This document shows positions 5,613-63,587 of a stretch of 64,000 nt of DNA, one piece after another. Positions within the stretch are counted from its first letter, which is position 1. Each line of letters opens with the position of its first letter. Position numbers and translations under genes: made by a program. Source of the stretch: Tricharina praecox (lineage: Eukaryota); NCBI RefSeq assembly GCF_024521635.1, contig NW_026250412.1:434001-498000 (forward strand), in the 5' to 3' direction. The notes beneath the pieces were generated by a model. The model was not told the origin of the DNA and did not search any database. It saw nothing but the letters and a program-made list of their open reading frames with translations.

Positions 5613-7535
5613 ATGGCAGGAGATTACGAAAACTTCGAGGGTATCTATATGGATCTCTCACGACAGCCCGGAAGGTGTCGTTTCAACGCCAGCGGGATGG
5701 GATGGAGACCTGTCGACGGCGAGATGCGGATGCTCGTCAACTCAGAGATTGCTTCTGCACAGTGGTCACGAGCAGCGAAAGGCTACGAAGTGAAGATCAT
5801 CACCCGGACCATGGGAATTGTGCAGTTGGACGGTTTTGAGCAGGATGTGTGTATTACGTTACTTCGCCGGCCGGGCGTGGTCGATTGCCATGTTGATTAC
5901 TGATGATTGCTTCCGTGAAATACAGGATTTCGACCGCGTTAAGGCCGCTCTCAAATCTTACTACAAGGTCAATCTCGAGCACCGCGAGCACGCTCTAAAG
6001 GGATGGAACTGGGGAAAGGCCGAGTTCTCTAAGCAAGAACTTCACTTCAACGTCGCCAACAAGCCCGCGTTCGAGATTCCGTTCTCGGAGGTCTCCAACT
6101 CTAACCTTGCTGGTAAGAACGAGATTGCGGTCGAGTTCGCCACAACTGAGAATTTGGTGGGCGGTCGCACGAAGAAGAACACTGCTGCTGTGGACCAGCT
6201 CGTTGAGATGCGATTCTACGTTCCCGGCACTGCCAAGAGGGGTGAGGGTGAAGACGGTGCTAGTGACGCTGAAGGAGAGGATATGAGTGCTGCTACGCTG
6301 TTCTACGATACCCTCAAGGAGAAGGCGGATATTGGAGAGATTGCTGGAGATACCTTTGCAACATTCTTGGATATTCTCTTCCTTACGCCGAGGTATTTTC
6401 TGTTCATTCTGTTTTGTCTAGGAGCTGGGACTAAACAATGCTTTCAGAGGTCGCTACGATATCGACATGTACGAGTCATCCTTCCGTCTGCGTGGTAAGA
6501 CGTATGACTACAAGATTCAATTCGAGAACGTCAAGAAATTTTTCTTGCTTCAGAAGCCCGACGAAGTCCACAGCTTGATCGTGATCGGACTCGAACCGCC
6601 GTTGAGACAGGGCCAGACCAAGTACCCGTTCTTGGTGATGCAGTTCAAGAAGGAAGAGGATATGGACTTCGACCTGAACATAGCTCCAGAAACCCTGAAA
6701 GAGAAGTACGGCGACCGGCTACAGATGCACTACGAGAACCCCGCGTACCGAGTCGTCTCAGATATCTTCAAGGGCCTGACCGGCAAGAGGATTACGATTC
6801 CTTCCAAGGACTTCGTTAGCCATCATCAGCAATCGGGGGTTAAGTGCTCCCTCAAAGCCAATGAAGGGCACCTCTTCTTCCTGGACAAGGCGTTCTTGTT
6901 TGTCCCGAAGCCAGCTAAATTTGTGCCTTTCGAGCGTGTCTCGCACGTTACTCTCTCGCGGTAGGGACCTCTATTATTCCACCACTTTTGTAATTTGCTA
7001 GCTAACATCACGGCAGTGTCGGTGGATCAGTGTCGGCTAGTAGGACATTTGATGTAACCGTCACCATGAAGGGTGGTGAAGGAGAGTACCAGTTTAACAA
7101 CATCAATCGGTGATTCCAACAACTATTACCAATCCTAAGGCCACCAGCTAATATGTTCACAGCGAGGAGCAACCATCGCTTGAGGAGTTTTTCAAAATCA
7201 AGAACCTGAAAATCAAAAACGATTTGGTCGACGATGCTAGTGCCCTCCTCGCCTCTGCCCTCGACGATGACGATATGGACGATGAAGACGTTGCTGCGGC
7301 TCGGGCTGATCGTGGATCCGCGGACGAAGATGAGGAATCCGTCGATGAGGATTTCCAGGCCGATTCAGAATCCGATGTGGCCGAGGAATATGATTCTGCC
7401 CACGAGAGCAGTGGATCAGACGGTAGTGAGGCGGGCGGCGACGCTGGCGGCAATGACGACGACGATGAGGACATGCAAGACGCACCTGTTGTCACAGAGC
7501 AGCCGGCGAAGAAGAAGGTCAAGACGAAGAAATGA
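5613..7535 (+). CDS. POB3: FACT complex subunit Pob3/SSRP1 (5 exons)
   Basis: HALKGWNWGK, LTPR|GRYDIDMY, FRLRGKTYDYKI, PPLRQGQTKYP and VKCSLKANEG motifs. Acidic C-terminal tail ends in a basic NLS-like PAKKKVKTKK. Four GT-AG introns. Confidence 0.95.
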
Positions 7536-13737: not shown

Positions 13738-14318
13738 CCCATCCGATTCCGGCTCCGAATCCGACTCGAAAAACCGATTATGAAAAATGACATGACATGC
13801 TATGTGAAATGATAGATACCGATACCCTTTCTTTCTTCCTTATATAGTTTGTATTATTTGGCGTGCATTTCGGCGTGGGCTTGGCTGGGCTGGGGCAGAC
13901 GGCAGACGGCGGGGTGGGGTGGGCTGGGGGATACACGGCATGGGATGGGCTGAAATGTGTATTTTTTTTCTTTTCTTTCGTCTTTCGTGGTTCGGGAGTT
14001 TGTTTGCTTCAAAGTTCAATGTTCCTCTGGTTTTGTTTCATTTTTTATGGCTGTGGTTTTTTTTTTTGGGACGGCGGCGGTTTTGTTATCATGCTGAGGA
14101 ACGAGCGGGCGAGTGAGCGAGAGAGGGAGGGGTAGACATGTGTAGTGAACTGTGAGTGGTGCGGGATGTTGTGTATGTAGTTTTATGAACTGGCGCGGGA
14201 GGTTGGTACGATACGATAACGAACGCGGGATGAATGGGGGCGTTGAGAAGCATAGATGATGGATCCGTCGACGGTGAGAGTGAGAGTGAATGGTGAGAGT
14301 GAATGATGGGTGTGAATG

Positions 14319-14607
14319 GTGATTTGAGGTTGCTACGATGGATCACGGGCTACCGGATATGTGGAATGGCTAGGTAGGCTAAGTCTGAATATATCCATTC
14401 AACCAAACCAAACTAAGCCGGTTGACGGTTGACCAGGCATAATCTTTTGACATTCCAAGATCCATCCATCACACCAGTATGAATTGTGACTTGAGGTTGA
14501 AAGATCACGGGCTAAGTCTGAACATATCCATTCAACCAATCCAATCCAAGCCGGTTGACCGGGCATGATGTTCTGATATTCCAAGATCCTATCACATCGC
14601 TATAAGT
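14319..14607. repeat. Imperfect tandem duplication (two copies, starts 167 bp apart)
   Basis: GTGAYTTGAGGTTG..GATCACGGGCTA..AGTCTGAAYATATCCATTCAACCAA..AAGCCGGTTGACC..TTCCAAGATCC occurs starting at 14319 and again at 14486. Confidence 0.85.
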
Positions 14608-16136
14608 ACACACAACCTGCAACAATGAAAACTCAAGATTCAATACGATCTCCTGACAACTATATCCACATATCCACATAGTAGGTATCCCGTAACACGA
14701 TAAGTATCAATAGATGATATTCCCAGAATCATTGAATCGCACACGGTCCCTGACATCAACATGAAGACCCGCTAGTAGTTAGCTAGTGCCGATCATTGAT
14801 ATGTAGCATCCCGGGTATGTTATTAATAAGGAACCCGTATGTAGAGTATCGAGTTCGCGGCCAGCAGTCGGTGACTCGGTGATAGTGACAGCGGGGTGGG
14901 GACGGGTAGTTACATGTATATCTGCCATAATCTATGGTACTAGGTGGTAGGAAGGTCGAATGCAATGATGATTCAACCAAAAAATTCAATAGCATCCCGA
15001 GGAAGCACAAAGAGACATTTTCTTGGGGGGTAGGGCGGGTCATAACCTGAGCCGATAAAGCTCGGGCTATGGACGTTTATCAGACCGCCTTCGTCGATGG
15101 AAACACGGCCACCAGGCCGCACGGGGCCACAAGACCGAGGAAAAAGCCGGCGGCGAGGGAAGACAAGAGGAGGAGGTGAAGCCTTCGTGTAGGCCCATAG
15201 GTACCGGCCTTTACCGTACCAAAGCGGGATGGCAGACGAGGACGTCGGGAGATCTACTATAGAGAATCAAAGGTCGGTGGTGGAGTGTGGGAGTGATGAT
15301 TCATGAGTCCCTCCACGGACTCGACGGTCCACGCCGGCATTTCGTATTCTGCTTTCTCGGATCCGTGGATGTACGGCGACGATGGCAGAGGGTGCGGGAC
15401 TGTCTGTCTGCCGGCCCGTTGGCCGGTGAGGCAGCACTTACCCTCACACCCGAGTACATATCTGCTTACATACCCGCTTACATAATCTAGATACCGGAAG
15501 TTTGAATTTCCGTTTGCTGGATGCTGACTGCCGAGTTCCGAACATGATCGCCCGTGCGGCGAATTTGAAAAAGAAGGAGAGACTTCTTTTCGGGCATTGC
15601 CGAGCTGCAAGCTGCAGATTTGTGGATGTGTGGAGTCGGTTTCTGACTTTTGTGGCTGCTATCGAAATCAGTAGGATTGTAAGGTGGTAAATAACATGTA
15701 TGTGGGACATCGACAGAGAATGATCTGATCTGCTCGTACGGTGCAAGTTAGAGTAGATAGAGTAAATAGAGTACGTGAGGAGGAGGACAGAGGGCCGAGC
15801 TCAAGGGTGAATAGCCAGGGTAAGAGCTACCCAGATGTACCAGTACGATACTACGATGCGCGTAGCCACGGCATCGACCTATTCCCCAAGCTCAATTGCG
15901 AACCAGTATGACCTACCCAAGTACCCAAGGAAGTAGCTACCCGATTCACGACCACGGCCCTATGGTTATTATTACCTAGTCGGTCCCGATGCTGCCCTGT
16001 TTCGGAGTCTTGGACCTGTCAGGCTGTCACAAGTTACAACGCCCAGCTCACGGTTAGTCTGTCACCCACTGTCGCGTCGCGGCGAGAGATCACGAGGCTG
16101 CATTGCGACTGGTCACCAGGCTGACGGTGACAAATC

Positions 16137-16252
16137 GTGATGGATGGACTCTTCGAGTCCCGACTCTATGATTTGAAGGGCAACCGCAACTGTTTTCTCA
16201 GTGCTGCCGGCGCCCCACATCCGCATTGCGGGGGATAGTTGCTACAGTCTGT
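16137..16252 (-). other. Copy 1 of an unidentified dispersed ~120-nt structured non-coding element
   Basis: Shares GAGTCCCGACTC, ATGATTTGAA, GGCAAC, TTTCTCAGTGCTGCCG, CCCCACATCCG and GGGATAGTT, in the same order, with 39431-39560. Strand is inferred from G-U pairs. Confidence 0.75.
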
Positions 16253-17832
16253 CATAGGTACATTGTATACTGGTATTGGCTCCGAAGGTCGGCGTACTGA
16301 GTGCTACAGATACCAACCAGCAGTTTCGGTCTTTTTCACTGAGCCCATATGTACCCATAGATCGGATAGATCGGATAGAATGAATGGGAGGGGTGTCGAC
16401 TTCGACTTCCTATGTGTGGTGATATAAACGAGCTCGCTACCAGGCAGCACTTAGCCTACTCCAGAGCCCTCCGGGCGGCTACCAAAGTGACACCACCTGA
16501 TCTCCACAGTTGTCGGAGGATGCCAGGCGGTGACGAAATGATATCCTCATGAGTAGACCTCAGGTTCCGGCCGGCATCCGCCATGGCTGTGGATCCAAAG
16601 CAGAAGTTCGTCCGTCCGTTGCGCGGATTACTACGGTATTGAGTGGCATAGCATTGCTTCCAATCCAACATAGGTAGGGAGGCATGTTACCATGTAGAGT
16701 ACATGCCGGTATTGACCTTCTCACGCGGGGGAGATGATGCTACCACCCTCTTTGTGGGCTCTGGGAACGCCTGCCCTATTCCATTCCACGGATACTTGTA
16801 TCTCCCCATCCCCCCTCCAGCGACCTATAGGTGGGAAAGTCTTCCTTCCACACAGAGACATACCACTTCTACTACCTACTCCGCTTCCACTGCACTCTAC
16901 ACACACAACCTACCTACGGCAGATACCTACATCACAAACGGAAGCACCCCATACCTACATCCAACTACCTAGAGAACCTAGCTTCACTCTATTCTTCACC
17001 TACGCGCTGTCCTACATACAAACTACACACTCTACTGGTAAACGGCCCTGCACTCCTCTGCCGGGAACAAGATCACGACGGGCTGCTCCAGCGAACGACT
17101 GCTTGTTTACTGCGGCCAAGGTGTCTCGATATTCTCATAGCAATGGATGTTAACTGTATGTATGTCAATAGCAGCTCGATGCATTTTTCGCACGACATAC
17201 GGCACATCGGCCACCACAGTCAGAGCCAGGAAAAACAAGGTGAGCAGAATTATCGATCGAGAGGTTGTGTGCACTGTGCATGTCTGGATATTATTTCCCC
17301 GCCACCACTGTCTACCTACCACCACCTCCACCCCCATCTCCCATTTCTGTACTCCACTCCATTCGCTCGCTCTCGCCTCCTCCTTCCCCGCGCCTTCCGG
17401 CAGTCTTTAGCCTGGCACTGTGTCGGGTTGCACACACATATTCTTCTTGTGTGCTGCTTACTATTCACTCTCTTCAAATAGTGAAGGGGGGGAAGGAGGC
17501 GAAGGTGGAGAAGGAGGCGAAGGGGGAGGAGGAGCAAGAAGAAGATGGACGAGGAGGTGGTGGAGAGGGAGGGATGTGTGTTCTGTGATCACCAAGGAGT
17601 CTTGATGTACTCTCGTACTACCTGTAGTTACTCGAAGCACTCGACTACCTCCCGTCCTGCATCGTTGCCTTGATACCTACCCAACTGCGAATGCTACATT
17701 CTGACTTCAACCACACACTACTACCACCCACTACATCCTACCTCTTCCTCCACCACCACTACTAACCACCAAACCCAATCCACCACACAACATAATCACA
17801 TACTTGCTGATTCATATAATAACGGTCGCGTA

Positions 17833-20800
17833 ATGCTAGAGTCTGCACGACCACACCATCCTCCAAGTTCGAGTTCGAGTCCAACTGCGGCGCCAACTAA
17901 TGGTTCCCCGCGACCCGTCGAGAACGGTCGTCACCGCAAGAGCGTAATAACCCTCGACACCCAGAACCTCACCAAGTCACCCATGTCCCCACGGCCATCC
18001 TCAGCGCACTCCATGACGAGCAGCAGCGGCACCGGCAGCGCACACCCCACACACGAGACCCCCACTTCGCCGAGCAGCGGCGGCGGCAACCATGCCCCCT
18101 CGCGGCGGCCCTCGTGGCTGACCAGTTTCTCGTCGAAATTCTCGTCGACGTCCAGCGTCGAAGTGCAAGCGGCGTCGGGAAGTAGTACGTCCGCGACCAC
18201 TTCGCCCACGGCAACCCCCGAGCCACCGAAGCCCCACAATACCCCGCCAGGGTTCCTGCTCTCGACGCTGCGCCGGCTGTCCTCATCGACCGCTCGCGAA
18301 ACGTTCGGCAGGAGAGCCTCGGTGCCCTCCGTGGGACTGTGCGACCGGGTGATTCTCAACAGGGATCAGCATCGCGAACGTTCTGAAATCCCCGAACTGG
18401 ACGGCGGCAAGCTGCGGAAGGTCTCGTTTTGCGTCGATGTCGAGGTTGCGCCGTGCCACGAGGATGTCGAGGCTCGCAAGGAGGCCCGCAGGAGAAGGAA
18501 GGAGGCAAAGGAGAAGGAGAAGGAGAAGGAGAAGGAGAGGTTGAAACAACTGATGGAAGATGGTTCTCCCGAGATCGCCAATTGCGATGGCGCTGGTACC
18601 GATGGTGCGCCGCTCGTCGCCAGCACCACCACTGGAGATGCGGAGAAGAAAGGGCGCGGGGGTGAGATGACGAATGGATCTGTAGACCCAGCATCAGGGA
18701 ACGGGGCTGCCAATGGCACTAGTAGAGATCGGCCACAAGACTCCACCGCCGCCGAGGATAACCCGTCGGCAAATCCAGACTTGGCGCCGGCGTCTGGGTC
18801 GGCGACAGACAAAGTGCCCAAGGTCCGTCGGCGAATCCACCCAAAGCCCACAACCGATCCGCTCAAGATATATACCCAATGCTGCCAGCTGCGGGAAACA
18901 AAGGTCTTGCCCGAGGTCAAGGAGCAGCTCGTCAAGGAAAACTACCCCACTGTGTTGCGGGTCATGGATCTCACCGGGCATAAATTCCAGGTTGCAGATG
19001 CGGTTACATTTGCCGACTTTTTGGCTCTGGTGCCCATCAAACGGCTGATATTGGACGACTGCGATCTCACGGATGAGATACTTCGGATGGTGCTCTCGGC
19101 GCTCTCGGCAGTCCGGCCAATTGTGGCCACCACCACCTCGGAAGAGAGTGAGGGTGAGGCAAAAGGCAAGCCGAACGGGAAAGATGAGAAGCACCACAGG
19201 GGCGTCGTTGAGCGACTGTCCCTGAAGAAGAACCCAAAGATTGGAAGGGAGGGATGGAGACACATCAGCTGCTTCGTGCATATGTCGCATTCACTGAAAG
19301 CACTCGATCTGTCCAGAATTGTTCTGCCACGGCCCATGCCTGTTCACCATACCACCCTGGGGCGGATAGTTCAATCAAAGGACCTGCCTTCCAATGATGC
19401 TACGGCGATATTCTCGAGGGCGTTGGCGGAACGGCTTTGCGGCCATGGGCTCGAAGAGCTGGTGATGGGACATTGCAGTCTGAGTTCGGACCAGCTGAAA
19501 CTCGTGATGAAGGGCGTCGTTGCCGGCGGGACGAAGCGGTTGGGACTCGAGGGTAATTCGCTCACCGACGATGGCCTGGCTATGGTTGGACAGTGGATGA
19601 AGGGCGCCGGTACTGGTGGGGCTTCCATCTGTGAGGCTCTCGATTTGTCCCACAATGATGTTCAGGTAATTTTGAAATTTGGTCCCATCTATTCCCCGCA
19701 AGAGTTAACATCAGTACAGGACCATATTGACATCCTGTCGGCATCGATCAATGAACTGTCCCCCCTATGTGCATTGAGCTTATCCAACTGCAACCTCACT
19801 CCCGCATCGCTGTCGAGCCTTCTTCCAGCACTCGCGACTCTCCCTCATTTCCGATGGCTCGATCTGTCGCGCAACCCGCGGTTGTTCTCGGAGCAGCCGG
19901 ACAGTCTCACGCTTCTTCGGAGATTCTTGCCGAAGATGAAGGCGCTGCGGAAGATTGATCTGGCGGGTACATCGATGACATCGGATCATGCCATCGCACT
20001 CTGCGAGATCCTGCCGGAAGTCAAGCAGTTGTCATTCTTCAAGATTACCGAGAATCCGTTGATTCAGTCCGGTCACGCTGGGATGGACGAGGGATCTATG
20101 GAGGAGGGCGCAGCTGTGTATACGGCACTGGTGGCCGCCGTCAAGGTCTCGAAGACAATCGTCAGGGTCGACATCGACGAAGCCGGCTCGTCCGCGGGAG
20201 AAGTCATCCACGCACTGTCCAAACGACTGCTCGCGTATTGCCTGCGTAACATCGAGTCTGGAGCTACCGAGGAGGACTGGACGGTTGACACGGCAGCCGT
20301 CTCACGGGATGGCTCGGAGATGAAGCATGCCTCGCCGGACGTCTGCGTCAATGTTGGCGATCTCGAAGAGGAAGACCGCGGTGCCAACTATGAATACGAT
20401 GGGGATGGGGTGTGGCAGGACGAAGAAAACTACGTTGTCGGCGGCACCGGTGTGGTTAAAGCACTCGGAGTGTGTCTCGGCAACAAGCCGCACCATGGTG
20501 CCCGTGCCAATTCTCTCAGTGGCTTCCCGAGTCTGCAGAAAGTGGAAAGTGCCAGTTCGATCGGCTCGTTCGGCGAGGACGAAGCGGGCCAGGAGAAGGC
20601 GAACGAGATGACCAAAGCCCTCCTGACCCGCGCTCGAAACATCAAGGCGCGCATCCAGCCGGCACTGCGGAAGGGCTACACTGGGGATATCGAGGAGTTG
20701 TCCTACAGAAGACTGCTCTTCCTGGACGAGACCCTCTACCGCGTCATCCACCGCTTTGAGGAGGAATATCCCGAATGCCGCCAGCCACTGCCATCCATCG

Positions 20801-21321
20801 CCGAGCCGCCGAGCAAGGCGTCGTCGTCAACGTCGGGCGCCCCTCTCCACAGGATAACTACCCGCATCACACGCGACGACCACGAGTTCGAACACGACGA
20901 CTCGCCGCTCTCTCCCACCACCACACACCACACACACATCCTCAAGCCGTCATCGCGCCGCGGCTCCGAGGTCTCGCTGCACTCGAAATACCTGCAGAAC
21001 GAGGAGGGCCAGATGCACAAGCTCGGGCACTACATGGCGCACGAGATCTTCTCTGACTCGCCGACGCCCAGCAGCAGCAGCCGCCAGTCGGAGGAGCCCG
21101 AAGCCGACGCCGAGGAGATGGCTGCCAGGAAGGCCCACCGCGAGAGCGTGCTGCTGGCTGTAGAGGGTTACTCTGGCGAGGAGCTGAAGCGCCGCATCAT
21201 GGAACAGGAGGGCGGCGTCGATGGGTACATCTCGAAGATTGAGGGCGAGAAGGCCGCGAGGAAGTTGAGTAGAGGCCCTAGTCCTCTGCCGCCGACGGAG
21301 AGGTCCAGGGAGAGGCGGTGA
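17833..21321 (+). CDS. RNI-like leucine-rich-repeat protein, MHP1/GIP3/HER1-like (putative PP1 regulator); in-frame intron 19666-19719
   Basis: 1162-aa ORF with LRR units (LKALDLSRI, LGLEGNSLTDDG, LSLSNCNLT, LDLSRNP), an RVxF-type motif LRKVSF, and the family-like motifs RVILNRD and IYTQCCQLRE. Confidence 0.8.
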   Translation: MLESARPHHPPSSSSSPTAAPTNGSPRPVENGRHRKSVITLDTQNLTKSPMSPRPSSAHSMTSSSGTGSAHPTHETPTSPSSGGGNHAPSRRPSWLTSFSSKFSSTSSVEVQAASGSSTSATTSPTATPEPPKPHNTPPGFLLSTLRRLSSSTARETFGRRASVPSVGLCDRVILNRDQHRERSEIPELDGGKLRKVSFCVDVEVAPCHEDVEARKEARRRRKEAKEKEKEKEKERLKQLMEDGSPEIANCDGAGTDGAPLVASTTTGDAEKKGRGGEMTNGSVDPASGNGAANGTSRDRPQDSTAAEDNPSANPDLAPASGSATDKVPKVRRRIHPKPTTDPLKIYTQCCQLRETKVLPEVKEQLVKENYPTVLRVMDLTGHKFQVADAVTFADFLALVPIKRLILDDCDLTDEILRMVLSALSAVRPIVATTTSEESEGEAKGKPNGKDEKHHRGVVERLSLKKNPKIGREGWRHISCFVHMSHSLKALDLSRIVLPRPMPVHHTTLGRIVQSKDLPSNDATAIFSRALAERLCGHGLEELVMGHCSLSSDQLKLVMKGVVAGGTKRLGLEGNSLTDDGLAMVGQWMKGAGTGGASICEALDLSHNDVQVILKFGPIYSPQELTSVQDHIDILSASINELSPLCALSLSNCNLTPASLSSLLPALATLPHFRWLDLSRNPRLFSEQPDSLTLLRRFLPKMKALRKIDLAGTSMTSDHAIALCEILPEVKQLSFFKITENPLIQSGHAGMDEGSMEEGAAVYTALVAAVKVSKTIVRVDIDEAGSSAGEVIHALSKRLLAYCLRNIESGATEEDWTVDTAAVSRDGSEMKHASPDVCVNVGDLEEEDRGANYEYDGDGVWQDEENYVVGGTGVVKALGVCLGNKPHHGARANSLSGFPSLQKVESASSIGSFGEDEAGQEKANEMTKALLTRARNIKARIQPALRKGYTGDIEELSYRRLLFLDETLYRVIHRFEEEYPECRQPLPSIAEPPSKASSSTSGAPLHRITTRITRDDHEFEHDDSPLSPTTTHHTHILKPSSRRGSEVSLHSKYLQNEEGQMHKLGHYMAHEIFSDSPTPSSSSRQSEEPEADAEEMAARKAHRESVLLAVEGYSGEELKRRIMEQEGGVDGYISKIEGEKAARKLSRGPSPLPPTERSRERR

Positions 21322-25989: not shown

Positions 25990-27625
25990 TTTGACGTTTT
26001 GAGATGTTCGGTGTGGGGTGGGTATGGGATTTCGGGTTGGATGGAGATGAGTAGAGGGAGGATAGGGAGGTTGCGGAGTTTCTAGTGGGAGGGAGGGGTT
26101 GATGGAGGGGGAGGGGTTCGCAGAGTTAAGTACGCGTTTACTGATTACTGTTCATGTAAGCCAGCCAGCCCCACGCAATGGCTTGGGAGGGGGGGAGGGG
26201 GGGGGGGTGCACGGAGTGAGGGAGGGAAGCCCGGTCCGCGGAGGACGAGGAGGGGTAAGTTGGTGGGTAAGTCAGTTGGTTACCGTTGAGTAACGCGATG
26301 TTTGGACCGACGCATAAATTAGAAGTCGGGAGAAGAAGAAAAGAAGCACCCCGGAAAAAGAGCGTGCATGGAGGATGGGTGTGCAGGTCGCAGCAAGGCA
26401 GCAGAAAGCAGCCTGAAGACATCTCCACTCTGCGTGCACTCCTCCCTGCGTATACTCGCTCGAGCTCTGGGCTCTAGGCTCTAGGTTCTGGAGCATACCC
26501 ATGATGCGAGTGAGGCTTTTACCCACCACCTCCAGCACCACCACCAACAACACCAACACCACCACTACTTCTTCCAGCTGGCTAGCGAAACGCTTCAACG
26601 TCTCAGACCTGCAACGACCGGCAAGTACGAATAGCGGCGATGTTCGATGCATTCGGGCGTCAAACTATTGACTAAACACACCGTGAAGGTTGCGGTTACG
26701 CTGTTCATGCCCACGGTGTTCATGGGCTATGCGTGCATTCATCCCAGGACCGGCGAAACCCTATGTGAGCCGACGGTCTCAGCAGTGGCCAGTGAGACGG
26801 ACACAGAGCGGATGGCCAGTCTCGATAGTGGTGGTGGTGATGGTGATGGTTGGCCCAGGATGGTGGGACACCCTGTCGAATTGAACCCTCCTCCAGCTCA
26901 CGGGAATCATGCCCTCGGTTCTTACTGGAGGAGAGTGGACCATGTGGAGGTGGAGACGGCGATGGATGGGTTGGAATACCTACATGCATTTGAGACTGTG
27001 GTGCCCGTGGTAAGTACTTACGTAGGCACTTGCACACATAGAGTGCTATCCAGAGACATCCCGCGCTTTCGCTGTCACCGCTGGCGACTGTGCCGCCGAA
27101 CCCGAGGGCGAGGGTTGTTTGTCCTCGGAGGCCCGAAAAGGCGCAGCCAGACGGCGGCCAGAGATTGCGATCGGAGACCGAACGTGGGATCGGAGAGGGG
27201 GTGCAGTTTGGGTGACAAACTCACCGCAGACCCCAAACCGGCCTTCGTTGCCGGAAGCCGCCGAGCAACAGAAAGTTTGAACCCAGGGAATCCTAGCCAT
27301 GCCTGCAGAAGCCAAAAATTACCACCCGTCGGCGTCCATCCGGCCAACCAACTATCCACTTCCCCCTCCTAGCCCAACCAACCCCCAAACCCGACCCGCG
27401 ACGACTTTGACGACCACAAAATAATCAGAATCGAGCAGGGATAGAAGTAACCCTCTCGTTTGTTCTGTCACGCTGCTCGCCTGCACTACCGGCGTCATCC
27501 ACAAACACACGACCACCCACTCCCCACTCACTCCTCCACCCTCGCTCGCATCCCCAACACCCACCCCGCCACCTTCCACCCTACAACCAAAAACAGCCCT
27601 CACACCCCCCTTCATAGCTTCAGAA

Positions 27626-29367: not shown

Positions 29368-30414
29368 TTACTTGCCCACGCCCTTAACCGCCAGCTTCCG
29401 TCCGATATTTCCAAAACAGACGCAAGCACAGAACAGGACGCTAGCGATCCAGGTGCCGACCGCGATTGATCCCACTGACACGAGCCCGCCAACAACGAGC
29501 TCGTCGTGCAGCGCGCCGACCGGCGCCTGTATCATCTCGGGACTGATTTGCAGCAGGAATGCGGTGCCGGCGACGCCGACGAGCGACGCGAACCAGAAAC
29601 CGGAGCGCGTGCGGTCCACGAGGAACCACAGGAACGGGTTTACGAGCGCAAGTGCGAGCGAGACTTGCAGGTTCGATTGCCATGGGAGGCGGCGCTGGGG
29701 GGTGTTAGCATCCGGATCTGGGGGTGAGAGGGGGGAGGGGAGGGGGGGGGGAAGTACAATTGCATAAGCGATCCCGACGAACGCGCCAATGCTTCTAACA
29801 ACGGGGATCCACTCGGTCCTTCCGGCACCCTCATTGACCTCCTCGTCGTCGGTATCCTTCCCGTCGAGCCACGGCAGGACGCTCCCCAGGCCGACACCCG
29901 CCAGGCCCCAGAACGCGAGGTACCTTGTCGACCAGCGGTCAACGTCGACGCGCAGCGCGGCGCCCGCGCCGCCCTCGTGCAGGTGCGTGATAATCACGCC
30001 GTACGCGACGCCGAACACGAACAGGCTTGCCACTTTCAGCGCCAGGCCCGTCGCCGTCTCCTTCGATCGGTGCAGCGCCGCGTCCATGGCGGAGGAGCGC
30101 GCGGCCAGGCTGGGTTTGCGAGGGGCGAAGCCGTTGGACGGCGTGAGCGGCGTGAGCCCGTTGGTGTTAAAGTCCGCCATAGAGTTGTTGCGAGTTAGCT
30201 GCGAGGGAGTGGAGGACTCGTCGGTGTTATAGGTGCGGCCGTAGATTCCGAAGAGAGTGCTGGCGGTCAGAGAGACGGCCGACCGGTTGCGCCGAGGGGG
30301 GGCGTCCCGGTCCGCGTCTGAGGAGTAGGGGTCGAGGTGCTCCGAGTCGCCTGGGAGGTCGAAGGGGCGGCGAGGAACCGGGCGGTGCAGGAGGGGGCTT
30401 GTTGCGTCCGTCAT
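29368..30414 (-). CDS. INSIG/Nsg1-Nsg2 family ER membrane protein; in-frame intron 29757-29695
   Basis: LFVFGVAYGVIITHLH, WGLAGVGLGSVLPWLD, VRSIGAFVGIAYAI|RRLPWQS, NPFLWFLVDRT and WIASVLFCACVCFGNIGR motifs. Confidence 0.88.
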   Translation of the reverse strand: MTDATSPLLHRPVPRRPFDLPGDSEHLDPYSSDADRDAPPRRNRSAVSLTASTLFGIYGRTYNTDESSTPSQLTRNNSMADFNTNGLTPLTPSNGFAPRKPSLAARSSAMDAALHRSKETATGLALKVASLFVFGVAYGVIITHLHEGGAGAALRVDVDRWSTRYLAFWGLAGVGLGSVLPWLDGKDTDDEEVNEGAGRTEWIPVVRSIGAFVGIAYAIVLPPPLPSPLSPPDPDANTPQRRLPWQSNLQVSLALALVNPFLWFLVDRTRSGFWFASLVGVAGTAFLLQISPEMIQAPVGALHDELVVGGLVSVGSIAVGTWIASVLFCACVCFGNIGRKLAVKGVGK

Positions 30415-38068: not shown

Positions 38069-39266
38069 TCATTTACTAGTCAGACCCTTCCTCTGCATGG
38101 CGCCGCTGAGCCAATCCATATACTCGCTCTTCGAAGTACTGCACTTCAGCTTCTTCGCGAGCTCAGGATCCTTGAGGCAGAGCATCTCGTACTGGTCCCA
38201 TGCTGCATCCTCGTCTTGATCTATCCAGTGCAGCTTCTTCCATTCCTCCTCTTCGGCGAGACGCAATGCCTTCATAGTCGAGCTCATCTGGGACACTTCC
38301 TGGTTGACTGTCATGTGCACCGCGCGGGCCTGCGCTGGTTTCTCAGGCTCCTCGGCGTCGCGGAGAGACCTGCTTTGCGCCCTCTCTGCAGCATGTTGCG
38401 CGTCGACGTGATAGAACTGAGGTCGTAGTTGAAGGGTGGAGCGAACCGGAGTGACGTGTAGTTGGTCTGCGACAGAGGTTTAGATATGTGCAAAACAAAG
38501 ATGGAGGCGTGCAGGTAGATAACGTACCGCCCGTAAAGACCCCAACCATATACTTGGCTTCATCGGCCTGTATCTTACTTCCCAGTGTCTGTTTACTCAA
38601 TATCCTCCCCTTCTTGACCGCCTCCTGGAAGTCCACGAACATAATATCGTCCTCTTCCTCATCATCATCCTCTCCCTTAACCTTCCTCCTCTTCCCCGCC
38701 CTCGGACCGATCGCCTTCCCTGGCAACCCGCTCTCCTTCGCCTGTTGATTCTTCCTCAGCACATCACCCCAGATCCTGCCCTTTTCTTGATCGAAGTTGA
38801 TCGCGGTATTAACGGGCACATCAACTTCCACCAGTCCTGCCTTCGGTTTCCACCTCGCGTCGACGGGACACGAGCTCTGCGCCTTGTTGTACGGCTTCGT
38901 CTTTGAGCGCACCGGGTACTGGAATAGATATAGGCTCTCAGCGAGTTCCTCGGTCATGAAGATGTCATACTCGCGGACTACGGGATCCTCGTCGGATTCG
39001 TAGTCGTCGTCGTCCTCGCTGGGTGAGGCTGGCTCGGAGTCGCTGGCGTCATCGCTGATGTCGACATTGAGCCTCGGGGGTGCCGGAGCTTTGCATGTGG
39101 TAGTTGTCTCGTTGTCCTCTGAGTCGGAATAATTCGTACCTGAAGGGCCGGGACCGAACAGCGGGGTGTCTTCTGTAATTTCGGTGGCGATGGGTACTGG
39201 CGGTGAGGTCGCTGATTGCAATGTGGATTGCTTGCCGGCACGGGCGACCTTTGGTGCTGGAGGCAT
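38069..39266 (-). CDS. RPC37: RNA polymerase III subunit Rpc37/RPC5 (2 exons)
   Basis: EDPVVREYDIF, LYLFQYPVR and YMVGVFTG|DQLHVTPVRSTLQLRPQFYHVD. C-terminal AEEEEWKKL..ID. Confidence 0.88.
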
Positions 39267-39400
39267 GGTGGGGGTTGAGTTGAGTGGTGAATGGTAGGTT
39301 ACTCAGAGATGCGACTTGGATACTCTAGATGCCTTTCGAGAAGCTTGGCACGGGATTCTCCGTCAATTTCAGCCTAGTAAAGTACAAGGGTGAAAGGGTA

Positions 39401-39736
39401 AGTCGTGACCACCTCAAATTCGTCGTAAGTGTGATATATAGACTCTCAGAGTCCCGACTCCATGATTTGAATGGCAACTGCACTATTTGCTTTCTCAGTG
39501 CTGCCGAGTCAATGTTGACTCCCCACATCCGAGTTGCGCGGGATAGTTAAAATAGTCTATTTTACACCAACCAAGTTCCAACATCCATCCCCACTACATA
39601 CAAGGCGATCTCCAGCATGAGGCCTAGTATCTAGTTGATCTCCACACAAAATCTCACTTATTTCGCTGCAACCGGCCAGTGTATGGCCCTTTTAGGGCTG
39701 GCCTCCCGTACAACTGCAATGGAGACGGTCACGACT
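39401..39736. mobile_element. Putative MITE (336 bp) with terminal inverted repeats and TA flanks
   Basis: TA|AGTCGTGACCacCTCaaATT at the left end and AATgGAGacGGTCACGACT|TA at the right end. No recognisable coding capacity. Confidence 0.55.
39431..39560 (-). other. Copy 2 of the dispersed structured non-coding element
   Basis: Colinear sequence blocks shared with 16137-16252. Carries an extra hairpin, GAGTCAA-TG-TTGACTC. Confidence 0.75.
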
Positions 39737-39914
39737 TAAGGCTTCCTCCTTCTACACACCCTTAACACAAGTAACAGGACCCAACTTTTTGATACCCAGC
39801 CAAACTGAAAACACGATTCATCATCAACGCAAATCCATATCCGCCCAATTCCGCTTCTCGTAGGGTAACAAAGCAGGAGTTTTCTCAATTCGTGTCAATC
39901 GGAACTGTGGTATT

Positions 39915-41091
39915 CTATACCATCACATGGCTGAACAAGAACGACACACTCTCACCGTTGTGTGTCCGCCTACACGCCTCCGCAATCTGCATCACACATC
40001 AGCACTCGCGCCTTTCATCGTTCACCGCGGGGAACAAACCGTAGGAGCAACGTCAATCGTATCGATTTTAGGACATCTCTTCTTCTTGTCCTCATGCGGA
40101 ACAGTATCCGTAACCACCAATCTACTCAGCCTGCTGTTTGACACCTTCTCGCAGGCATCACCCGAGAGGATACCGTGTGTTACGATGGCAACCACCTCCT
40201 TCGCTCCGTTGCTCATCAGCACGTCGGCAGCTTTGCAGAGGGTTCCGCAGGTATCTGCCATGTCGTCCACCAGGATTGCGATCTTCCCGGTCACGTCTCC
40301 GACCAGCGTCATTCGGGACACCTCGTTAGGCCGTGAGCGCTCCTTGTGAATGAGGGCGAAGTTCAGGTCCAGTCGGTCGGCGAGAGCGGTGGCACGCTTT
40401 GCTCCGCCGGCGTCGGGAGAGACGATCACGGCGTTCTTGTAGTCGAAGTGTTCGCGGATGTAGCGGAGGGTGAGGGGTTCGGCGTACAGGCTATTTACTC
40501 TACTATCAGTCCTCTTGCGTCCTTATTGAGTGCGCGTGGTGAATCAGACTCACTTATCGACTGGTACATCAAAGAAGCCCTGTATCTGCGACGCATGGAG
40601 GTCCATCGTGATGACATGGTCGCACCCGGAGCGCTGAATCATATTCGCAATGAGTTTCGCTGAGATCGGTGCACGGGATTTGTCCTTCTTGTCCTGACGG
40701 GCGTATGGGAAGTTTGGCATAATGGCGGTGATGCGACGAGCAGACGCGGTCTTGCAAGCTTTGGCGATGATCAGAAGCTCCATCAGGTGGTCGTTCAAAT
40801 CCTCGCCGGGACATGTTGTCTGCAGGATGAATACATCCTCGTCGCGGACCGACTCTCGCATTATGACCGAGGTCTCTTGGTTCGAGTATTTGAATACGCT
40901 CATGTCTAGAAGCTCAACTCCCAGTCTCGTAGATGTCAGCGCATGCTTTGAACCACCGCGCTCACCGCCATCGCCACCCACCACCACCGCGCCCACCGCT
41001 AGAATATTGTGATTGCATACCGGTCTGCTACTCGCTTCGCTAACTCGGGGTGGGAGTTTCCGGTGAGAAGTTTGATTGAGTTGGAAGCCAT
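39915..41091 (-). CDS. PRS2: Ribose-phosphate pyrophosphokinase (PRS2/PRS4 type; 4 exons)
   Basis: [60 protein letters not shown] and [10 protein letters not shown]. Ends [15 protein letters not shown]. The paralogue number is tentative. Confidence 0.9.
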
Positions 41092-55691: not shown

Positions 55692-56472
55692 TCACCCCAG
55701 ATTTGGCCAGTCGTTCAACAGCTTGACCACCTGCGGCACCTCCAAATGATCCCGAGTATTCGCCATCCGATGGCACCACTCCAGTTTCTGATCCACCCAC
55801 AGGAACTCCCCACCATTCTATGCAAGTGTATATCGCATCAGCACCCATCCCACCCATGCCACCCACTCCCTCCCTCCCTATGTATATAGGTTCTCATCAA
55901 CCACTCACCCTGGCAAAGTTCCCGCCACTAAACACGCCGCCTTTCAGGCCACCGACAACACCGTTCCAGATCCCGGTCAACACGGGTGTGGTGATGTACT
56001 CTGGCTTCTTTGCGCCGAGCCCGAACGACTTGTGCATCCCCAGCGCGCTGTACACCGCCCCGCTCGGGTCGCTGTAGATGTCCCATGGCGCCCCCAGATC
56101 GGCTTTGTACCCGGCGATCTGCGACGGCGAGCCGCACCCGATTATTATCAGCTTCTTGCCATGCGCGGCCAGTGCAGAGGGGGATAGTAAGGGCGCGGAG
56201 ATGAGGGTGCGGATGTAGCTGTGGGGTGTTAGTCCAAGGGGAGAGTGGTGGGGGAGGGGAGGCGGGGGGGAGAGGGAGGGGGAGGGGGACTCTTGACAGT
56301 TGCCGCAGTAGAAGTGTCGGATGAAGATGGTCAGTATGTAGTCTGGCTGGCCTGTGGTCAGCAGCTGCGGCAAAGTTGTGGCCGCCCCCGTGTGGTCGTA
56401 GACGTTCAGCTTGGAGAGCTTTTGGAGCGCTGTGGCGGGTGGTAGGGCGTCGGAGGTCAGTGTGGTGGACAT
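55692..56472 (-). CDS. AhpC/TSA-like (peroxiredoxin-like 2 / AAED1-type) thioredoxin-fold protein (3 exons)
   Basis: IFIRHFYCGNCQ (CxxC), IIIGCG, IYSDPSGAVYSALGM and GGNFAR|NGGEFL..WCHRMANTRDHLE. Confidence 0.85.
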
Positions 56473-62503: not shown

Positions 62504-63587
62504 GGTTTCGGAATCTTGTGCTCTCTCTTGCCGACGAGGAAGGGGAGGAGAGCTTCTCTAGCGAACAAAGAGCTTGTGAGGGGGCGGTAAGAGTTCGTGG
62601 ATCTGTCGTTGGGGAAAGCAGCTCCACTGAGGGGTTCCGAGGTTCTGGGCGAGAGGAAGGGTAGGAGGGGGTCGTAAAAGGATACGGGATGGGATTATCG
62701 TTACAGGAGCAGGCAGACAAGGTGAGTAAGGAATAGGACACTAGTAGTGTAGAGTAGAGTGCTCCAGCCAATTAGAGTAGGTCACAAGCAGATCTCCGTT
62801 GAGTTGACGCCAAGATTATTCTGAGAGCCGCTGGGATGAAACGGAGGAACCCAGTAATAGAGAGAGGAATGAGATATTCTATATATCATGTATGATATCA
62901 ATATTTCATGATTGATTGATCAACCTAAAGCGATTCTAGAGTTCTCTGAAGCGTTCCAAACGTGGAGAACACGCGGAGAGGATAATGTTTCTATTTAGGT
63001 TCTGGCCATTGCATTGTTCTCACCTGATACTATGGATCAGCCGCTCGCTGGCATGGCCGCGGAAACGTATCGATTTCAGCCCGCGAATCCACGGCCATTT
63101 AAGTGAAACGGCGAATGACGTTTACAACCCATTCCGCATCTCCCCCATACGTGTTAGAGTCCACTCAAAAATACGAATTGGATCAATTGATATCAAACAG
63201 CGGAAGAGAGTACCGAGTCGGCGATACCCAGTGGCCAATGGCCATCTTGCCAGTGGGGACCGCTGAGAATGTCTTGGGCCGACGAGTTCCGATCATTTCA
63301 AGAGCACAGCAGTTTCAGATGCTATCCACACGTTTGTATCTAACAGTTCAAGCTAATTGACATAGCGAAACGGTAGAAGCCCAGCCCACTTCTCCATTAT
63401 TTTTTGTTGCTAAGAACAAAAAGAAAAGCCCTTCATCGCCCATCATCATTAACGCTACACTTAAAGGCCGTATTACATCCTAATGTAGTTCTCCACACCC
63501 ATTTTCCTATGAAACTCCCCAAATTCCGCTCGCTCACTCGCGATTCTATGCGAAGGGTTGATCCGCCGCGCAAAGGATTTTCATGCT

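Follow-up and report, generated by a model that had tools for sequence, protein, structure and literature searches.

A discrete non-coding repeat of about 115–130 nt, present twice in 64 kb of Tricharina praecox DNA, considered as a drifting DNA repeat and as a folded RNA

To our knowledge, very few lineage-specific structured RNA classes have been catalogued in filamentous ascomycetes apart from universal ones and the TPP riboswitches. Two fungal motif surveys are reported to give only 15 and 17 candidates (PMC5640933; Gao et al., 2021, PMC8216456). On the RNA side, one of the closest described systems is formed by the fungal variants of the HDV ribozyme, 230 of which are presented as dispersed, multi-copy, structured non-coding elements of ~100 nt in Pezizomycotina, with variable gene neighbors and mostly missed by standard searches (Li and Breaker, 2017; PMC5640933). 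On the DNA side stand the unclassified short interspersed or MITE-like repeats of fungi: ~120 bp long, non-coding, located near genes, rich in hairpins and with copies diverged by ~20%. The element described here shares these features with both.

It occurs twice in the window, by which we mean the whole 64,000-nt stretch of T. praecox DNA that was analyzed. When each copy was compared with the window by blastn, positions 16137–16250 (copy 1, 114 nt) and 39431–39558 (copy 2, 128 nt) aligned colinearly on the same strand, with 73.4% identity over 128 gapped columns (E 1.5e-18); both copies are non-coding and lie ~23 kb apart, and the next-best blastn match to either of them within the window, at E 0.03, is a chance match to coding DNA. 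An nhmmer profile of the pair retrieved these two copies only from the window (E 3e-47 and 9e-41, next E 2.1), as did a covariance model run with its filters off (next E 0.58), and two candidate partial copies, at 7481–7508 and 62810–62896, were rejected as sub-threshold and, on reading, due to chance. The repeat search delimits two ungapped blocks common to both copies, one of 52 nt (85% alike) and one of 38 nt (82% alike). Across the 110 ungapped columns there are 20 substitutions, accompanied by an 11-nt and a 3-nt indel, so that the copies have diverged by ~18%; a slightly wider trim of the alignment counts 12 transitions and 9 transversions. The longest identical run is 16 nt, which by our own estimate is about what uniform decay would leave at such divergence.

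The copies have sharp common boundaries. Compared over 120 and 300 nt to either side, the flanks resembled each other no more than shuffled sequences, which scored at least as high as the real flanks in 215/500, 249/500, 80/200 and 66/200 trials; a continuation of homology beyond the boundaries was rejected on this ground. The earlier note on this DNA, made from the letters alone, had proposed a repeated ~120-nt element in one orientation with dissimilar flanks; the blastn match, the nhmmer search and the flank shuffles all agree with it, and the BLASTN/nhmmer check that it suggested returns exactly two copies within the window. The repeat and its boundaries are thus directly observed: it is a discrete unit of ~115–130 nt that belongs to no catalogued RNA or mobile-element family.

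We tentatively favor, as the explanation of this unit, a low-copy, hairpin-rich DNA repeat that was copied by a small mobile element or by local duplication and is now drifting. A non-coding unit of ~115–130 bp would have been duplicated as DNA, either as a small non-autonomous mobile element or through local ectopic duplication in the chromosome arm; its copies would then have drifted ~18% apart, acquiring two indels, with no demonstrated function; and their short helices would be inherited palindromes, mostly derived from GACTC/GAGTC, rather than RNA helices under selection. The mode of copying and the neutrality of the repeat are what we infer here, from the sharpness of the boundaries and the unrelated flanks and from the fact that no hallmark of a small-RNA class is kept in both copies. 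That two copies lie within 64 kb likewise suggests a multi-copy family or a local duplication.

Like MITE-like fungal repeats, copy 2 carries a short inverted repeat near its ends (ATAGACT...AGTCTAT). It differs from them in that this sole inverted repeat is only 7 bp long, is degraded in copy 1 and starts 7 nt inside the left boundary rather than at the left end, in that the 2–8 nt flanking either copy are not duplicated, and in that the window holds no autonomous relative or transposase; a MITE was rejected on the first two grounds. Solo LTRs have TG...CA ends and a 5-bp duplication, and Helitrons a 5′ TC, a 3′ CTRR after a hairpin and insertion between A and T; we found no TG..CA end, no 5-bp duplication and, on both strands, no CTRR at either 3′ end. 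A tRNA, a tRNA-derived SINE and a 5S rRNA were set aside as well: there is no Rfam 5S match, ARAGORN finds no tRNA gene in the window, reading reveals neither an A-rich tail nor a target duplication, and a B-box-like TTCGAGTCC in copy 1 reads TCAGAGTCC in copy 2. The subterminal position and shortness of the inverted repeat and the lack of target-site duplication, A-rich tail and tRNA-like part all argue against a mobile repeat, as do the absence of any transposase, reverse transcriptase or integrase among the 100 window ORFs scanned against Pfam and a copy number that is not apparently high. The earlier note had offered the alternatives of a multi-helix RNA and the structured core of a small mobile element: its discrete, unassigned unit stands, its mobile-element core is conceivable, though without the inverted-repeat and target-duplication hallmarks, and selection on an RNA fold is only weakly indicated.

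The copy number was approached through assembled sequence data. We compared positions 16040–16350 with the Logan contigs of four soil-metagenome runs at a likeness of at least 80%. The surroundings of copy 1 occur in DNA contigs of runs from one study; runs X1, X2 and X3 yielded one contig each, in every case the locus itself, and X4 yielded none. Because only the locus itself matched, a young, high-copy family is unlikely, and the absence of further copies at this likeness in the organism's runs is another difference from MITE-like repeats. As copy 2 also went unmatched at 80%, relatives ~75% alike would be missed, and the result bounds close copies only. Elsewhere, a 20-letter pattern taken from the best block drew 40 loci from metagenome contigs, which we checked by blastn, nhmmer, the covariance model and alignments of the best four; their likeness is confined to the pattern and represents chance. 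A two-block pattern drew 7 contigs of bacterial metagenome-assembled genomes from prokaryote genome contigs, none matching the model beyond 31 nt and together about as many as we estimate to be expected by chance. Pattern scans of viral contigs gave no match, and four element strings of 12–15 letters, searched in full-text literature, led only to unrelated papers on mouse and human.

The contig from run X2 differs from the window at 2 of 311 nt, both within the element: C>T at 16185 and A>G at 16225 on the plus strand, each giving the base found in copy 2. On the simplest reading these are two recent changes in the lineage of the window; gene conversion between the copies could also account for them. 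That both differences fall inside the element suggests that it is not under tight constraint.

A protein-coding origin was rejected. Substitutions are distributed 8/6/6 by codon phase, the 11-nt indel shifts the sole shared reading frame, the other frames contain stops, and the best alignment block, read as codons, has three changes that are all non-synonymous; the lack of a coding signal is therefore seen directly. A spliceosomal intron or introner was rejected too: on the plus strand, GTGATG and GTGATA would make poor 5′ sites and no branch site accompanies them, and the minus strand offers none.

The window is gene-dense and 54% G+C. Its ORFs carry Pfam domains of WD40, V-ATPase/ATP-synthase c, TCP-1, SSRP1/Pob3, 6-phosphogluconate dehydrogenase, Mog1, INSIG, mitochondrial carrier, MPC, RPC5, PRPP synthetase, FGGY kinase, Vps18, cobalamin-independent methionine synthase and Sec1 proteins. 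Copy 1 sits between two plus-strand genes in a gap of 3.9 kb (13738–17673) that is unusually long for the window. None of the 30 ORFs (55–216 aa) in this gap has a Pfam match below E 0.089, on which ground transposon remnants around copy 1 were rejected. The gap may hold a long leader or a promoter belonging to the LRR-protein gene (17830–21318), or else unannotated non-coding transcripts. Copy 2 lies in a 755-bp spacer between two minus-strand genes, namely a ribose-phosphate pyrophosphokinase (PRPP synthetase) ORF ending at 40025 (PF14572 and PF13793) and an RPC5-like gene whose ATG is at 39266 (PF04801, 1.1e-18); it is ~465 nt past the PRPP-synthetase stop. The closest named relatives of the RPC5-like protein are in Sphaerosporella brunnea and Wilcoxina mikolae (65% identity), followed by Pyronema, Geopyxis, Ascodesmis, Morchella and Tuber; all of these genera are Pezizomycetes, a result pointing to a Pezizomycete source. 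Since the two copies share neither the function of their neighbor genes nor a position relative to them, a common role in an untranslated region or promoter is not apparent.

This setting bears on the idea that the unit is a cis-acting DNA element, either a cluster of GACTC/GAGTC binding sites or a boundary or insulator, kept for protein binding. Copy 2, 165–292 nt upstream of the RPC5-like ATG, occupies the expected place of that gene's promoter or 5′ leader, and both copies contain the array GACTC-N3-GAGTC-N2-GACTC, three sites in 20 nt by pentamer count (16147–16166 in copy 1 and 39441–39460 in copy 2), to which the insertion in copy 2 adds two more pentamers as GAGTC-N6-GACTC; the pentamer is otherwise under-represented in the window, with 118 sites observed against 168 expected, or ~1 per 540 bp. 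We nevertheless consider protein binding an improbable explanation: a colinear likeness of ~115 nt far exceeds the needs of a cluster of binding sites, the first start codon downstream of copy 1 is 1.6 kb away and no minus-strand gene lies below this copy, and the neighbor genes are functionally unrelated, with no known factor linked to the motif. For the array itself, three readings can be offered: a bistable RNA design, protein half-sites in a cluster, or palindromes spread via template switching. The reuse of one pentamer three times within 20 nt, and the fact that the insertion in copy 2 is another such palindrome, make the palindromes look inherited or mutational, in keeping with a drifting DNA repeat.

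The main rival to a drifting DNA repeat is that the copies are paralogous genes, or a gene and a pseudogene, for a lineage-specific small structured RNA transcribed from the minus strand, which we regard as possible, if unlikely. Such an RNA would comprise an outer stem, a multi-helix junction, a variable arm and then a 3′ hairpin, and could serve as an RNP scaffold, a processing element or a ribozyme. The triple GAGUC/GACUC/GAGUC supplies the 3′ strand of P1 (the outer stem) and both strands of P6 (the terminal hairpin), so that mutually exclusive pairings are possible and the RNA would be permitted two exclusive conformations. Sharp boundaries between unrelated flanks, which also suit a DNA repeat, are what paralogous RNA genes would have, and the surroundings are gene-dense and free of transposons. 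A more specific form of this rival, a new Pezizomycete-restricted minus-strand RNA gene present in few copies per genome, with a three- or four-way junction, an expandable arm, a 3′ hairpin and a switch between two folds, and a candidate riboregulator, RNP scaffold or self-cleaving RNA, strikes us as somewhat more doubtful again.

The fold that we tested was the minus-strand model of the earlier note, 27 pairs in five helices, drawn from the same two sequences. The elements on which it was built are all present: GACU/AGUC; CUAU/AUAG in one copy and CUAU/AUGG in the other; the CCC.CGCA...UGUG.GGG segment; GGCAGC/GUUGCC; the invariant UUCAAAUC; and the terminal hairpin GGACUC-NNN-GAGUCY. Its variable arm is also real, in that the 11-nt indel creates, in copy 2 only, the near-palindrome GAGTCAATGTTGACTC (39506–39521), which reuses the GAGTC/GACTC pentamer, forms the GAGUCAA..UUGACUC hairpin and appears in the minimum free energy (MFE) fold of copy 2. 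The indel thereby adds a self-contained hairpin exactly at the junction, as in the expansion arms of real RNAs, which speaks against a plain DNA repeat. The second indel (3 nt, 39482–39484) affects the GGCAGC/GUUGCC hairpin, in its loop region.

Counted as 27 pairs in each of two copies, the minus-strand model pairs in 54/54 cells, counts that favor the model because it was derived from the sequences being scored. Mirrored on the plus strand, the same model pairs in 48/54 cells, since six cells that are G-U on the minus strand become A-C; the asymmetry noticed at first sight is therefore genuine, and it involves four pair columns in four helices rather than the three helices initially given. 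RNAalifold also assigns a better consensus energy to the minus strand (−24.65 kcal/mol) than to the plus strand (−19.9 kcal/mol). Against this, 25 of the 27 pairs are invariant, the other two change on one side only (U-A to U-G and G-C to G-U) and none is compensatory, so that there is no covariation in the model; RNAalifold found no compensatory pair on either strand. Nor is the strand settled. The alternative outer stem that the earlier note thought would favor the plus strand does exist: it is the 7-bp inverted repeat described above, which pairs better on that strand and is perfect in copy 2 only. On reading, a plus-strand helix (ACUGU/AUAGU in copy 1, ACUAU/AUAGU in copy 2) undergoes a one-sided G-U to A-U change of the same kind as those on the minus strand.

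Energies give the shared fold little encouragement. The best structures holding all model pairs reach −27.3 and −28.1 kcal/mol in copies 1 and 2, against MFE values of −37.0 and −37.7 kcal/mol, which places the shared fold ~10 kcal/mol above the optimum of each copy. MFE z-scores relative to shuffles are ordinary (minus strand, −1.5 for copy 1 and −2.1 for copy 2; plus strand, −0.3 and −1.7), and the interiors of the two MFE folds differ. Only with trimmed ends do both copies yield P1 and P6, at a probability of 0.98 in copy 1 and ~0.5 in copy 2. Neither copy gives P2 or P3 a pair probability above 0.03; of P5, no more than the outer four pairs are predicted, in copy 2 alone, and part of this helix is at or below 0.03. 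The MFE fold of copy 2 trades P1 and P6 for a long outer stem because the pentamer is repeated.

The positive signal for the minus-strand fold comes from where the copies differ. Both indels, both strain differences and all but two substitutions lie outside the helices of the 27-pair model, the exceptions being the two changes to G-U; the strain variant at 16185 is unpaired in the model and that at 16225 falls in a loop, and the 23-pair RNAalifold consensus has one substitution in its helices. As a null, substitutions matching the real ones in number and kind were placed at random in either copy (400 replicates per copy), and such patterns reached the real minus-strand consensus energy in 3.75% and 1.75% of cases; the structure conservation index (SCI) of this strand is 0.67, against 0.52 for the null. 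A second null preserved the clustering of the substitutions by rotating their mask through the alignment; 5/109 and 1/109 rotations did as well as the real pattern. The plus strand behaved inconsistently in the same tests (62% and 2.5% for random substitutions, 45/109 and 4/109 for rotated masks). This avoidance of the minus-strand helices counts against a freely drifting repeat; it is the sole positive signal for the fold, and a weak one. The claim of the earlier note that the differences preserve structure is supported by the one-sided changes and by this weak permutation signal, at ~1–5% of nulls, and opposed by the absence of compensatory pairs and by the unfavorable shared fold.

The case for a structured RNA is accordingly weak. 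With no compensatory pairs, a disfavored shared fold, ordinary MFE z-scores and conflicting evidence on the strand, little points to selection on the fold, and two copies are too few to tell a folded RNA from a drifting DNA repeat. If the unit is such a repeat, it adds one more unclassified short repeat of a soil ascomycete, and with it the caution that two aligned sequences may pair in all helices and keep their indels to loops with no covariation behind them. Should the minus-strand RNA be real, a lineage-specific structured RNA would be added to those of filamentous ascomycetes.

Searched with Rfam 15, a check that the earlier note had proposed, the whole window has no match at gathering score, and this absence of a catalogued family is again a direct observation that tells against a small RNA. 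In E-value mode, the 601-nt and 141/154-nt stretches around the copies returned noise only (E 0.76–8.5). The best near-misses, on the plus strand and covering the first ~70 nt, scored 13.9 bits (gathering 43) and 17.7 bits (gathering 75). ARAGORN, Rfam, a descriptor search and reading concur with the earlier statement that the element matches no tRNA, 5S, snRNA, C/D snoRNA, hammerhead or HDV ribozyme. Features of small-RNA genes were looked for in the form of promoters, terminators, boxes and Sm sites with a conserved 3′ hairpin; none is kept in both copies, and there is no T-run terminator and no shared TATA, which again goes against a small RNA gene.

Box C/D snoRNAs are marked by a C box (RUGAUGA) toward the 5′ end and a D box (CUGA) toward the 3′ end, along with a short terminal stem. 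The element recalls them in its near-misses, snoR66 (RF00202) and TtnuCD31 (RF02305) on the plus strand, in its roughly fitting size, and in copy 1, where the 5′ GUGAUGG of the plus strand resembles a C box and an internal AUGAUUUGA a C′ box. It departs from them in that the C-like GUGAUGG is GUGAUAU in copy 2 and in that a terminal stem of the snoRNA type is missing; the class was rejected because the plus strand has no 3′ CUGA (AGUCUG and AGUCUA stand there) and the minus strand has CUGA only centrally. Box H/ACA snoRNAs consist of two pocket-bearing hairpins, a hinge with the H box ANANNA and an ACA 3 nt from the 3′ end. The plus strand shows ACA in copy 1 and AUA in copy 2, 3–4 nt before the end of homology; this class was rejected because ANANNA is missing from both hinges and the 5′ hairpin, whose 6-bp stem carries a loop of 3 nt, lacks a pocket.

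Sm-class snRNAs are defined by an Sm site (A, a run of U, then G) flanked by stem-loops, a 3′ terminal hairpin that is conserved and a recognition sequence specific to the class. Likeness to them (U1-like) lies in a helix-closed junction of stem-loops and in an AUUUG found 10–20 nt past the minus-strand 3′ boundary at both loci, beyond which copy 1 has a 7-bp hairpin. Unlike in an snRNA, the flanks that bear AUUUG are not homologous, no 5′ splice-site or branch-site recognition sequence is present and Rfam has no snRNA match; the class was rejected because the 3′ hairpin exists in copy 1 only (z −1.26, against +0.30 in copy 2).

A hammerhead ribozyme requires CUGANGA, stem II, GAAA, stem III and a cleavage triplet. 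The sequence CUGAGAAA recalls the letters of the hammerhead core, and it has no stem II between CUGANGA and GAAA; with no Rfam hammerhead match either, this class was rejected. More broadly, the unit might be a self-cleaving ribozyme of a known class missed by profiles, whether hammerhead, HDV-like (fungal variants included), twister, pistol or hatchet. Its dispersed copies with variable neighbors do resemble the 230 fungal HDV variants (PMC5640933), but no ribozyme family was returned for the 141- and 154-nt stretches even at E values up to 10, and the nested double-pseudoknot strand order of the HDV type is not in both copies and matches no HDV-type Rfam family. We searched for that order with our own descriptor (P1-P2-P3-L3-P3′-P1′-P1.1-P4-J4/2-P2′, with J4/2 carrying C), which is distinct from the published consensus of the fungal variants: copy 1 has no solution on either strand, the minus strand of copy 2 has two, using the copy-specific insert and flank, and 45/200 shuffled sequences also yield one. 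A known ribozyme thus appears very improbable. The probability that is left beyond the four readings weighed here (drifting DNA repeat, small structured RNA, cis-acting element and known ribozyme) is assigned to none of them.

Several further features of the window were seen along the way. By eye, CAAAT(T)CGT, which on the minus strand reads as the Sm-site-like ACGA(A)UUUG, stands to the left of both copies, at 16128–16136 and 39413–39430; in copy 2 an insertion of 7–8 nt intervenes before the repeat, and the flank alignment test is not significant. The gap that contains copy 1 also holds a tandem duplication of ~85 nt at 14377–14589, with a period of 126–133 nt, in which 14377–14426 and 14510–14559 are 92% alike and 14426–14463 and 14552–14589 are 87% alike. 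About 100 nt downstream of copy 1, at 16351–16380, there is a short tandem repeat of GATCGGATA in ~2.5 copies. An imperfect 34-nt inverted repeat (74% complementary; 39382–39415 and 39722–39755, ~300 nt apart) brackets copy 2 and has no counterpart around copy 1. Finally, intergenic G-rich tracts, composed of G runs with interspersed A/T, occur at 26085–26282, 29720–29752 and 56228–56288, where G-quadruplexes may form.
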